Below, piece by piece: positions 3,362 through 33,957 of a stretch of 64,000 nt of DNA. The notes under the pieces are model-generated. The model saw only the letters and a list, made by a program, of their open reading frames with translations. It searched no databases and was not told the origin of the DNA. The translations under genes and the position numbers were made by a program. The stretch's first letter is position 1; every line of letters starts with the position of its first letter. This stretch comes from a virus. Taxonomy: Duplodnaviria; Caudoviricetes. The DNA lies in IMG/VR virus record IMGVR_UViG_3300025502_001322, positions 1 through 64,000 of that record; one strand, given 5' to 3'.

Positions 3362-5377
3362 ATGGCAAGACAGACAATTAACATAGGTACCATTCAGAAT
3401 GACGGCACGGGAGATAAACTCCGTGATGCTATGGACAAAGTCAATGATAACTTCCTAGAGCTCTATACTGAACTAGGGGGCGAATCATTAAGCAACCTAG
3501 ACATTAGTGGTAATACTTTAAGTTCAGCGAACTCTAATGGGGACATTATCTTAGACCCCAATGGCACTGGAAAAGTTAAGATAGATAATCTTGCTATCTC
3601 AGGTAACACGCTCTCAAGTACAGATACTAACGGCAATATAACACTGGATCCAGCTGGTACGGGTAGTGTTGTATTGGATAGTCCAGTCAGTATTACAGGT
3701 ACTCTAACACTAAGCACATCATTAAGTGCCAATGTCATTGGAAATTTAACAGGTGATGTTACTGGCACAGTTAGTAGTATCAGCAACCACACAACAACTA
3801 ATCTTATTGAAGGCACAAATTTATATTACACTAATACTAGAGCAAGAGCCGCATTAAGTGCGACAGGCAGTATTAGTTACGATAGCGGAAGTGGTGTAAT
3901 TAGTTACACAGAATCAGTAACTAGTGTTAATGGTGAAACAGGCGCAGTTGTATTGACTCTGAGCGATATAGCGGTAGATGGTCAACTTGATGGAGACCTA
4001 GTAGGTAGTGTGTTTGGCAACGACAGTACTATTCTAGTAGATGGTGGTGCTAACGAAATAGTTGGTACTATTAATTCCACAAGTGGCACAATTACAACAC
4101 TAAATGCAACAACAATTACGGGATTTACAACATTAACTGGTGCAGGCGATGCAATTATTACTGCTGGTGTGTTCTATGGTGATGAAACACAAGTAGACAG
4201 ATACTTGATGAAAGATTCATCTATTGTTATAGATGAAACAGGAACACTACTTGCTGATATAAACAACAGCACATCAGCAACCTTCTCTGGCACAGTAAAT
4301 TTAAACGGCGCCACAGTATCCAACGCCTCATTTAACTTAACTGGTAACTTAACTGGTGTTGTAGACGGTGACTTAATTGGTAGTGTATTTGGTGATGACA
4401 GTACAACAATTATTGATGGTATTAATAAAACAGGAACACTTACTGAATTAGATGTAGATGATATAAACATCGATGGTAATACAATTAGTGCCGCTGGTGC
4501 CGCATCCAATCAGAATCTTATCTTAAATGTTAAGGGTGTTGCCGCATTAGAGACAAACTCAGATACAATTTCGTTTCAACCAAGAACAGACTTTGGACTT
4601 GATGGTATTGGTGCGGTTGGTGATGCAGACAACTTATTCAGTCAGAACGATGACTATCTATACAAATCAACAGTTGCATATGACGGCAGTACACTAATTT
4701 GGAAACGTGCAAAGTTACGTTATTTTAACGAACCACTATTTTATGTTGGGGCAGATGACAGCACAATGCGTGGTGTTGGTGACCTAGAAGGTATTAAGAT
4801 TATAGGTGGTACCAATGTAAGCACATCAAGTGACGCTGAAGGTAACATTACAATCGACGCAACTGATACAGGTATTACAGATGTAGTCAGTGATACGACG
4901 CCTCAACTAGGTGGCGACTTAGATGTAAACGGATTTAAGATTACTACAGCACGTAGCAACGAAGACCTACAACTAGAACCGAACGGCACTGGTACAGTTG
5001 TAATTAACAGTGGCCTAAGACTAGAAGAAGGCACACAAGACAGATTTAGCACACTAACTGGGGCCACTGGCACAGTAGCACATGATTGCGCAAACGGAAA
5101 CATATTTTACCACACAAGTATTAGTGCTAACTTCACTGCAAACTTTACAAACTTACAATTAGACACAAGTTATGCTACAGCAGTCACATTGGTATTGGTG
5201 CAGGGCGGCACAGCATATATTCCAAACGTAGTACAGATAGGTGGTGCGGGCCAAACTATTAATTGGCAAGGCAATTCAGAACCTACTGGAACTACAAGTC
5301 GTGTAGATACTGTTTCGTTAACTATTCTCAATAACAGCGGAAGTTATACTGTGCTTGGACAACTAACGGACTTTTAA
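3362..5377 (+). CDS. Long tail fibre/baseplate protein
   Basis: Same NDGTGD N-terminus; repeated ISGNTLSS.D.NG.I.LDP.GTG units; Thr/Gly/Asp rich. Confidence 0.7.
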   Translation: MARQTINIGTIQNDGTGDKLRDAMDKVNDNFLELYTELGGESLSNLDISGNTLSSANSNGDIILDPNGTGKVKIDNLAISGNTLSSTDTNGNITLDPAGTGSVVLDSPVSITGTLTLSTSLSANVIGNLTGDVTGTVSSISNHTTTNLIEGTNLYYTNTRARAALSATGSISYDSGSGVISYTESVTSVNGETGAVVLTLSDIAVDGQLDGDLVGSVFGNDSTILVDGGANEIVGTINSTSGTITTLNATTITGFTTLTGAGDAIITAGVFYGDETQVDRYLMKDSSIVIDETGTLLADINNSTSATFSGTVNLNGATVSNASFNLTGNLTGVVDGDLIGSVFGDDSTTIIDGINKTGTLTELDVDDINIDGNTISAAGAASNQNLILNVKGVAALETNSDTISFQPRTDFGLDGIGAVGDADNLFSQNDDYLYKSTVAYDGSTLIWKRAKLRYFNEPLFYVGADDSTMRGVGDLEGIKIIGGTNVSTSSDAEGNITIDATDTGITDVVSDTTPQLGGDLDVNGFKITTARSNEDLQLEPNGTGTVVINSGLRLEEGTQDRFSTLTGATGTVAHDCANGNIFYHTSISANFTANFTNLQLDTSYATAVTLVLVQGGTAYIPNVVQIGGAGQTINWQGNSEPTGTTSRVDTVSLTILNNSGSYTVLGQLTDF

Positions 5378-32528: not shown

Positions 32529-32933
32529 ATGAAAGCAACAGACATTATTGAAGAAGGCATTTTAAGCGACATGGCTGCCAAAAGCGAGCAGGATCATGAG
32601 ATCCAAATGGCTCGTGGGCAGTTATATAAGACAGCAAAGTATGCTATTGAACTACACAACATGTTAAAAGGCATTAGCGAAGAGCAAGGCTTAGAAGCAT
32701 GGGTTCAAGCAAAGATTACTAAAGCCGCAGACTACTTGGGTGCTGTTAAGCATTACTTAGAATATGAAATGTTATCTAACGGTGAGATGCCAGTAGAAGC
32801 AGTTGAGCCTGAAGTTGAAACAGAATTAGAGTTAGGTGAGACTACTACAGCAGGTGGAGTTGCAACCAGTATGAGCGGCAACGGATTTGCTAGTGGCGGC
32901 CCAGGTGATAAGAAAAAGGTTATTAAACGATAA
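32529..32933 (+). CDS. Probable head-internal protein
   Basis: TAAATA 32505; N-terminus MKATDIIEE; LEAWVQAKITKAADY motif. Confidence 0.55.
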   Translation: MKATDIIEEGILSDMAAKSEQDHEIQMARGQLYKTAKYAIELHNMLKGISEEQGLEAWVQAKITKAADYLGAVKHYLEYEMLSNGEMPVEAVEPEVETELELGETTTAGGVATSMSGNGFASGGPGDKKKVIKR

Positions 32934-33538
32934 TGAGTAACGATATCTACAAAATACTAGAAGGTATGGACAGCATTAAGTCTAGTCATAAAGACCAGGT
33001 TAAAGGATCTGACAGGCCCAGTAAGGGCGAAAAGAAGTATGATGGTCCTTATACTAAACATCCTTTCCAGGGTAAACTTGTGGGTGAAGTTAAAGAAGAT
33101 GAGTTATCAGAAGAGTTTGACAAGTTTGATAACTCAGAACTAGTAACAGAGGCACAGTTTGATGAAGCCGCAGGCGAGAAAGACGCTTGCTACCATAAGG
33201 TCAAGTCACGTTACAAAGTGTGGCCCAATGCATACGCAGGTGGTGCATTACTTAAGTGCCGTAAAGTTGGTGCCAAGAACTGGGGCAATACGGGTAAAAA
33301 GAAAAGCAACGAAAACGTAGAGCTTGATAACAAATTAGATGTTAAAAAGTTGTTAACTAGCCTTAGTAATAGTAAAACCGTTAATAGTGACAGACTTGTA
33401 GACGCAATTGAAATGCGGTTCATGCATAACATGACCTACAAAGAAATAGGCGAAGAATTAGGTGTTGGTCCTCAAAGAGCCGCTACGATTATTGGAAAAG
33501 CACTACGCTTACTGAGGGCGCAATACGCTAGGCCTTAG
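32933..33538 (+). CDS. Modular probable head protein with C-terminal sigma70 region-4-like HTH
   Basis: CYHKVK.RY.VWP.AYA.GAL.KCRK module; IEMRF...MTYKEIGEELGV...R...I..KAL..LR HTH. Confidence 0.6.
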   Translation: MSNDIYKILEGMDSIKSSHKDQVKGSDRPSKGEKKYDGPYTKHPFQGKLVGEVKEDELSEEFDKFDNSELVTEAQFDEAAGEKDACYHKVKSRYKVWPNAYAGGALLKCRKVGAKNWGNTGKKKSNENVELDNKLDVKKLLTSLSNSKTVNSDRLVDAIEMRFMHNMTYKEIGEELGVGPQRAATIIGKALRLLRAQYARP

Positions 33539-33571: not shown

Positions 33572-33805
33572 ATGAGAATAACAGACTTTATAACAGAAAA
33601 ATGCTGGAAAGGCTGCGATCTGCTCGACCAGGTGATCATGGCGACCAGCCCAGACGCCTTTGCGCAGTTTCAGGCTCGCTTGGATATGCTACCTAAGCCT
33701 AATGACCGTTTACGCAAAACTATGCTCACGCCTGCTCCCTGGTTGAGCAGAGAAGACCCAAACAAAAACCGAACTGGCAAAGCCAAGAACGTTGTTACCA
33801 AATGA
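33572..33805 (+). CDS. Chimeric ORF: phage head-protein ends flanking a DUF1778 antitoxin C-terminal segment
   Basis: MRITDFITEKCWKG | CDLLDQ...LTPAPWL | SREDPNKNRTGKAKNV; internal segment 56% GC. Confidence 0.7.
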   Translation: MRITDFITEKCWKGCDLLDQVIMATSPDAFAQFQARLDMLPKPNDRLRKTMLTPAPWLSREDPNKNRTGKAKNVVTK

Positions 33806-33957
33806 CCTTAATAGTAGAAGAAATTACAATTTGTAGAGGGTGCTGGCATCCCGCACACTGTGGACACAGTTGTGTAGATGAGGACTGTGATTACTGCTCG
33901 GAATGCCATTGTGAAAAATGTAGAGAAGAACATGCGAGCAAGCGAAATAATACGTGA
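33802..33957 (+). CDS. 51-aa Cys/His-rich metallothionein-like peptide (not in track)
   Basis: MTLIVEEITICRGCWHPAHCGHSCVDEDCDYCSECHCEKCREEHASKRNNT*; 9 Cys, 5 His; ATGA overlap. Confidence 0.7.
   Translation: MTLIVEEITICRGCWHPAHCGHSCVDEDCDYCSECHCEKCREEHASKRNNT

Follow-up and report, generated by a model that had tools for sequence, protein, structure and literature searches.

A 77-residue phage reading frame carrying the toxin-binding half of a TacA-type antitoxin: a possible minimal decoy in a T4-type giant phage

Antitoxins and anti-defence cargo of phages

The TacA/TacT, KacA/KacT and AtaR/AtaT pairs are toxin-antitoxin (TA) systems in which a ribbon-helix-helix antitoxin of the DUF1778 family (PF08681) is paired with a GNAT toxin that acetylates tRNA. 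The role of these GNAT/DUF1778 (TacAT-type) systems is still debated. Phages, for their part, encode antitoxin mimics, among which are T4 Dmd and pseudo-ToxI, and T4-type phages carry PeSL cassettes, which are mobile cassettes of small genes flanked by repeated promoter and terminator elements.

The division of labour within this antitoxin family has been worked out for KacA. Its ribbon-helix-helix comprises residues 1-51, while strand B, helix C, a Pro-rich linker and helix D, together residues 52-86, are wrapped around the toxin and provide the high-affinity contact; an Arg of helix D is required for neutralisation, KacA deprived of its first 10 residues still neutralises, and the C-terminal regions of such antitoxins are disordered when free (PMC6698736). 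Orphan antitoxins of phages have been documented against the DarTG defence, namely the DarG-like proteins of T4-like phages and chimalliviruses, and AdfB of phage ICP1 (PMC11825919, PMC13309987, PMC11481870). Anti-defence proteins may also travel in the phage head: the T4 internal proteins IPI, IPII and IPIII are diverse anti-defence cargo lying behind a conserved 10-residue capsid-targeting sequence that is cut by the prohead protease after L/I-x-E, the first 10 residues suffice to load foreign proteins into the head and deliver them to the next cell, and one of the three, IPI, is injected and counters restriction (PMC9026906, PMC3012670).

The open reading frame (ORF) of 77 aa described here shares with the TacA family the C-terminal wrapping region, its nearest structure being 7AK7. 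It differs from that family in having no ribbon-helix-helix, so that neither operator binding nor dimerisation would be expected of it, in having the last three antitoxin residues replaced, and in being embedded in a phage gene under phage expression signals. It also differs in having no GNAT toxin gene, either adjacent to it, where a Cys-rich phage ORF of 51 aa follows, or in the genome as far as covered by a search without a positive control on a record ~80% complete. Judged from its sequence, the ORF is not a full TacA family member, both the ribbon-helix-helix and the toxin partner being absent. Like the DarG-like proteins and AdfB, it is a phage-encoded homologue of a host antitoxin that comes without the toxin, and its sequence identity to the donors attests capture from host DNA. 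Unlike them, it belongs to the GNAT/DUF1778 family, which the literature found does not name among phage targets, it holds only the toxin-binding half, grafted inside a resident phage gene, and its decoy role is proposed from sequence and a structural model.

Anatomy of the chimeric reading frame

The window analysed covers the opening 64 kb of an IMG/VR record of 289 kb (hereafter G000) that is estimated to be ~80% complete. Its virus, designated phage 1, is a T4-type giant phage, as seen from a gp21-type prohead protease and a gp23-like capsid gene; it is uncultured and comes from salt-lake metagenomes. Among isolated phages, cyanomyoviruses give it the nearest DNA matches, over short stretches. 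The ORF is built as follows (relatives are designated by their locus numbers):

33572-33805, + strand: chimeric 77-aa ORF, made of a phage N-terminus, the TacA toxin-binding region and a phage C-terminal tail (from the ORF list, its translation, Pfam TacA1 and PDB 7ak7_C)
33572-33618, + strand: phage-native 5' part, from the start codon, 15 codons plus 2 nt, with 81-93% aa identity, over 14-16 codons, to the start of the intact ~131-aa gene in the relatives L012-L023
33619-33742, + strand: tacA-derived patch of 124 nt, coding for TacA residues 51-91, which take in the final turn of helix B and all of strand B, helix C, linker and helix D
33743-33748, + strand: TTGAGC (Leu-Ser) at the 3' junction, six bases that match neither tacA (GAGCGT) nor the gene of the relatives (AAACGT or AAGCGT)
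33749-33805, + strand: phage-native 3' tail, REDPNKNRTGKAKNVVTK plus stop; ORF residues 48-77 have 53-60% aa identity to the C-terminal ends encoded by the relatives' intact genes

The initial annotation had drawn attention to positions 33611-33750, where it counted 79 G or C in 140 nt. The recount is identical (56.4%), and this is the highest value of all 140-nt stretches in the 64 kb (mean 39.3%, sd 4.5%). It had further described these 140 nt as antitoxin sequence spliced in frame into a phage gene. The frame is indeed open at both junctions, but the extent has to be corrected, as DNA identity to tacA is limited to 33619-33742 and the bases from 33611 to 33618 belong to the phage. The patch proper has 56% GC versus 39%, and its final codon is that of a Trp. 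The phage-native 5' part carries one Tyr-to-Cys change relative to the relatives, and a 26-nt paralogous copy of the ORF's start is found at G000 188262. The length of TTGAGC is that expected for a join at AGCGT, which is common to tacA and the phage gene; at the 5' junction of the patch no microhomology was seen. At its other end the ORF is tied to the following gene, its stop codon overlapping the next ATG (ATGA, 33802-33805). A scan for promoters and terminators around the ORF gave nothing above chance.

The assignment of the segment to the C-terminal, toxin-binding part of a TacA/DUF1778 antitoxin, made at first from the letters alone, was confirmed by three kinds of comparison. The Pfam model PF08681 (TacA1/DUF1778) aligns positions 41-75 of its 80 with ORF residues 17-51 (E 1.4e-4; 22.2 bits, gathering threshold 21), chain C of PDB 7ak7, a TacA-family antitoxin, matches with E 1.5e-10, and bacterial TacA proteins of 94 aa are 70-77% identical. 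TacA residues 1-50, which form the ribbon-helix-helix domain for DNA binding and dimerisation, are absent, the alignment deriving ORF residues 1-15 from the phage gene instead; the last three TacA residues are also missing. No match was obtained between the ORF and the PHROG families.

The junctions in several read sets

A frame of this kind could have been created by an assembler inserting a tacA piece from bacterial or other-phage reads of the same metagenome, an alternative raised together with the first description of the segment. The 124-nt piece is in fact a true three-way repeat in these metagenomes, shared by phage 1, a second phage and a bacterium (see the next section), and it demonstrably yields cross-joined contigs. 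The read data, however, argue strongly against this explanation. Parts of the window are contained in 24 public runs, nearly all labelled salt-lake metagenomes, and seven of these have 98% of the sampled words. Four runs (X1, X8, X9 and X11) were compared with the window by means of contigs assembled from 31-letter words of the reads. In X1 one contig (33408-33648) spans the 5' junction at a depth of 33.3 and another (33713-33880) spans the 3' junction at 32.6, the flanking phage contigs having depths of 32.3 and 32.2. Bridging contigs recur in X8, X9 and X11, each junction being spanned in three of the four runs; X11 has no contig over 33470-33610, and gaps of such kind prove nothing. As the 31-letter words come from reads, the words that span the junctions exist in real molecules.

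The 124-nt piece itself appears as a separate contig of about three times the phage depth (94.5 in X1) that branches at both ends, its upstream loose end leading to the 5' half of tacA and its downstream loose end to the end of tacA. No alternative path with an intact gene exists at phage-1 depth. Past the patch, the C-terminal tail of the same gene resumes in frame and is followed by the neighbours found in relatives. With both junctions spanned at phage depth in several runs and the gene order kept on both sides, an assembly artefact is scarcely credible. The 77-aa ORF is a real, recent product of recombination.

Four public contigs probably carry false joins at this repeat. L003 (34.7 kb) and L004 connect the left side of phage 1 to the right side of phage 2, with right arms that are 99.98-100% phage 2 and arms that overlap exactly on the 124 nt; L110 is the reciprocal, with the left side of phage 2 joined to the right side of phage 1; and the bacterial contig L108 (47 kb) has an end that runs into phage-2 sequence (region of L108:5286-5444). 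L003 and L004 were considered as a second genomic arrangement, which was rejected, since they are most simply assembler cross-joins; they still show the 5' junction in other assemblies. The small contigs are taken as cross-joins because all possible pairings are seen, while both long phage records keep a conserved gene order. Misassembly at the repeat is thus probable for the four, some rare real recombinants being possible. As a practical warning, the shared piece produces cross-joined public assemblies, and protein databases probably contain spurious chimeras of 60 and 111 aa translated from the misjoined ENA/JGI contigs.

A separate observation concerns positions 33294-33433 of the window, for which X1 holds a variant of the 3' part of the sigma-like gene with 13 differences, diverging near 33437. 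Its depth, ~2.7x that of phage 1, indicates a third, more abundant related phage in the lake.

Sources of the patch

The downstream loose end of the 124-nt contig led to phage 2 (IMGVR_UViG_3300022866_000322), a related IMG/VR contig of 221 kb whose sequence is also found on a 12-kb contig. A bacterium of the lake, represented by contigs of the same ENA project (L109 and L108), carries the gene as well. The relevant genes are:

L092:1318-1602: phage-2 tacA, complete (94 aa) and with a ribosome-binding site, between the major capsid gene and the genes of a 227-aa protein and of tail-fibre-like proteins
L109:1317-1601: tacA of the lake bacterium
L109:1598-2104: tacT of the lake bacterium, coding for the 169-aa GNAT toxin, directly after tacA and next to an integrase

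A search for the donor had been recommended in the initial annotation, and it was successful: the patch is identical to phage-2 tacA at 124/124 positions (L092:1467-1590) and to the bacterial tacA at 123/124. Outside the patch, phages 1 and 2 share 78-84% DNA identity, and phage 2 has an intact ~131-aa gene at the sigma locus (L014). The recent capture that had been supposed is well supported by these identities of 100% and 99.2% to co-occurring tacA genes. To judge by them, the immediate source of the patch is the co-occurring related phage with its toxin-less tacA, or the lake bacterium that stands behind that gene.

In phage 2, about 13 nt of tacT are left after tacA. The cassette (L092:1275-1635) is flanked by a 23-nt direct repeat and lies between the capsid-gene terminator and the next late promoter. 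The record of phage 1 holds the single, empty counterpart of this site outside the window (G000 ~156,850-156,930), with the terminator followed by TATAAATA. In its placement between terminator and late promoter, its direct repeat and the empty site of G000, the phage-2 gene resembles the PeSL cassettes; the patch of phage 1, unlike these, has no flanking repeats. The orphan TacA of phage 2, toxin-less and in a giant phage of lytic type, may be a finding in its own right. Next to it, the 227-aa protein encoded 3' of tacA (L092:1663-2346) matches PF16190, the FCCH domain of the ubiquitin-activating enzyme E1 (E 1.4e-9), and has no counterpart in G000.

The bacterium itself is uncultured, with ~47.5% G+C, and a neighbouring C-S lyase gene suggests that it is Burkholderiales-like. 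The Comamonadaceae were considered and rejected, the C-S lyase being only ~26% identical to anything encoded in Polaromonas, Rhodoferax or Burkholderiales representative genomes; its named relatives from metagenomes (79-89%) bear no finer label than Burkholderiales or Proteobacteria.

A search of the two phage records for TacT homologues, made without a positive control and with the G000 record ~80% complete, gave none, nor was a second tacA copy found in G000. Within IMG/VR this tacA subfamily was met in the phage-2 contigs only, and among isolated phages a full-length DUF1778 gene was found only in two Synechococcus phages, at 38% identity.

The two full-length genes differ in a markedly uneven way. 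Codons 1-35 of the phage-2 and bacterial tacA show four synonymous and five amino-acid differences (V4A, R9C, K17E, E19K and R35L), versus zero synonymous differences and one amino-acid difference over codons 36-94. Four of the changes in phage-2 TacA (R9C, K17E, E19K and R35L) hit positions with 90% conservation or more in an alignment of 36 TacA sequences, which, the two phage-2 forms apart, come from bacterial or unassigned metagenome contigs. By this pattern, the DNA-binding half of phage-2 TacA is drifting, while its toxin-binding half has been either freshly re-copied from the host gene or strictly kept, which fits selection on toxin neutralisation rather than on DNA binding. That no synonymous difference is seen over the 3' two-thirds of the gene speaks for recent gene conversion rather than purifying selection. 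On either view, phage 2 meets tacA in a cell and retains the neutralising half.

The recipient gene

Related viral loci were fetched with the upstream sigma-region-4 protein as anchor (484 loci). The genes on either side of the chimeric ORF are:

32933-33538, + strand: upstream neighbour, 201 aa, with a phage-specific N-terminal domain (PHROG 727) and a C-terminal sigma-70 region 4 (PF04545, E 1.2e-7)
33802-33957, + strand: downstream neighbour, 51 aa with nine Cys and five His; 65-86% identity to its counterparts in L018, L019, L022, L024 and L025, where it directly follows the intact gene

The comparison of the locus with relatives, which had also been called for, gave a clear picture. At the position of the chimeric ORF, between the sigma-region-4 protein and the downstream neighbours, the relatives have an intact gene of ~131 aa, which in L012 occupies 4524-4916, with the same genes on both sides. 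After the 51-aa ORF come ORFs of 91, 135, 84 and 93 aa and then the DNA polymerase, an order common to the window and the relatives. The last ~18 residues of the intact gene product (REDP.KNR.GKAKNV.TK) match the tail of the 77-aa ORF. In phage 1, therefore, only the first 15 and the last ~18 codons of the gene are left, ~100 internal codons with both conserved domains of the ~131-aa protein having been replaced.

The recipient gene was at first regarded as that of a probable head protein. This label is unsupported, because the family has no Pfam model and falls in PHROG families of unknown function only (PHROG 727/23735); moreover, the locus stands between the sigma-region-4 protein and the DNA polymerase. 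Shortened versions of the gene occur at L019:4357-4626, L022:2334-2603 and L024:343-612, which are without the first module and start at the second domain, with an N-terminus of the type M-K-V-A-E-I-V-x-E. Such variation among relatives marks the recipient gene as modular and able to bear rearrangement. Evidently it is conserved but dispensable.

Some features of the neighbours may be recorded here. The PHROG 727 domain of the 201-aa protein is widespread in marine phages, and the core of the gene has ~76-82% DNA identity to cyanophage genes; several relatives match the protein over its first ~120 residues only, and its sigma part looks like a separate module. The 51-aa ORF is translationally coupled to the chimeric ORF and overlaps the next ORF, and its identity to the relatives' counterparts indicates a real gene.

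What the patch encodes and the modelled contact with TacT

When mapped on the domains of KacA, the patch contains all of the toxin-wrapping region and exceeds it by four residues at one end and by two at the other. ORF residues 17-57 constitute this region and are 100% identical to the corresponding part of full-length phage-2 TacA. Helix D keeps its conserved Arg and Leu, both at the centre of the modelled interface.

A complex of the 77-aa ORF with TacT of the lake bacterium, a toxin that matches 7ak7_A with E 9e-64, was modelled with a score of 0.87, versus 0.00 for the best of three controls; of solved complexes 58 of 80 attain this mark, of mismatched pairs 2 of 110. Agreement between the runs extends to at least 69% of contacts, the pLDDT of the partner is at least 63, and the contacts involve only ORF residues 20-60, that is, the tacA-derived part. 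Since the homologous complex 7AK7 has been solved, the good score of the model means likeness to a known complex, not binding by this particular copy, and it possibly reflects that solved homologue. Binding of TacT by the 77-aa ORF is plausible.

A decoy antitoxin or a recombination scar

The reading that we put forward is that the ORF is a minimal decoy antitoxin directed at the host GNAT toxin TacT, and we give it about an even chance of being correct. According to it, 124 nt of tacA took the place of the ~100 internal codons of the ~131-aa phage gene, and the product would be expressed from that gene's own start. During infection the labile TacA of the host would be removed, for example by shut-off of host expression. 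The TacT thereby freed, an inhibitor of translation that acetylates tRNA, would bring protein synthesis to a halt and the infection to an abortive end. With the phage peptide bound to TacT in place of TacA, translation could continue, to the presumed benefit of the phage. The loss of the last three TacA residues and the absence of the dimerising ribbon-helix-helix may lower the avidity of such a peptide.

The main competitor is a neutral scar. In this case, a dispensable gene lost its central part to tacA sequence through an illegitimate or template-switch event, in which either two co-infecting phages or a phage and host DNA recombined; the open frame would be due to chance or to upkeep of the translational coupling of the next gene, and the peptide would have no selected function. 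We regard this as a serious alternative, of somewhat less than even probability. The event is very recent, the patch being 100% identical to its source in genomes that otherwise share 78-84%, which leaves room for a neutral allele to persist. The recipient gene is of a modular and variable kind, three relatives (L019, L022 and L024) having dispensed with its first module. There are also non-functional reasons for a kept frame, namely the stop/start overlap with the next gene and the AGCGT shared at the 3' junction, and the ORF is without a PHROG match.

Against the scar stands, in the first place, the fit of the patch. It lies in sense orientation and in frame at both ends, for which a chance of ~1 in 18 was estimated with the fit to domain boundaries not counted; when orientation, both frames and boundaries with only 4 + 2 spare residues are taken jointly, chance would account for them in ~1% of cases or less, before ascertainment. 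In the second place, the sister phage keeps an intact orphan tacA with decayed DNA-binding residues, as if the module were useful to the phages of this community. Finally, the chimeric allele is, by depth, the only form of the phage-1 lineage that is observed, and this in several samples. The sense orientation, the two open junctions, the boundaries that fit a domain and the orphan gene of the sister phage thus favour function over accident. Patch and source do not differ at all, so that conservation has had no time to reveal selection.

A function other than that of an anti-TacT decoy would make the patch a linker or disordered spacer in a shortened phage protein, or direct it at a TacA-dependent process of another phage. 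The original basic C-terminal tail and the N-terminal motif are retained, and free C-terminal regions of antitoxins are disordered (PMC6698736). With both conserved domains of the original protein gone, however, little of its function can remain, and nothing points to another partner. We hold this to be very improbable.

PADLOC contains no models for TacT/TacA (GNAT/DUF1778), and in the literature no paper was found showing that GNAT/DUF1778 systems defend against phage. Two related giant phages of lytic type, in one lake community, carry an antitoxin without its toxin, as a whole gene in one and as the toxin-binding half in the other. They amount to circumstantial field evidence, drawn from sequence comparison, that TacAT-type systems may bite phages and that the neutralising peptide alone may be the useful part. 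Orphan phage antitoxins were already known; this one differs in the TA family, the reduction to the toxin-binding half and the graft into a resident gene. If the decoy reading holds, three consecutive steps of counter-defence would be visible with donors at 99-100% identity, from a bacterial tacAT to an orphan phage tacA and from this to a minimal domain in a second phage.

The N-terminus and the idea of capsid delivery

The first nine residues of the ORF (MRITDFITE) end in I-T-E and resemble, by pattern, the capsid-targeting sequence of T4. It could be imagined, therefore, that the chimera is a natural targeting sequence with its cargo, a TacT-binding peptide that would be loaded in the prohead, clipped by the protease and injected with the DNA; delivery from the capsid had been envisaged in the first annotation of the segment. 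We consider this unlikely, the N-terminus ending in I-T-E being the sole, suggestive hint of capsid delivery. If true, the antidote would reach the host toxin ahead of all phage gene expression; it would be the first injected antitoxin, and a T4-type phage would have been caught recruiting anti-defence cargo behind a tag, which would imply that the GNAT/DUF1778 toxin-antitoxin is a natural anti-phage defence.

The comparison with the T4 internal proteins cuts both ways. Like them, the ORF has an N-terminus ending in I-T-E, a motif enriched at the ORF starts of this genome, and a T4-type protease is present (gp21-type prohead protease, PF03420, 93.8 bits, G000 153459-153893). Unlike them, it bears a likeness by pattern only, and its locus is beside replication genes, not head genes. 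With the motif defined as M, 2-4 residues, D/E, two hydrophobic residues, any residue and E, it is found at 9 of 336 ORF starts versus 2 of 1729 internal Met, an enrichment of ~23-fold, and these N-termini look like capsid-targeting sequences or protease-cleaved propeptides. The starts concerned include 29491, 32529 and 33572 in the window and 185682, 187243, 188262, 201130 and 242328 in G000, and they cluster at 29-34 kb and 185-188 kb.
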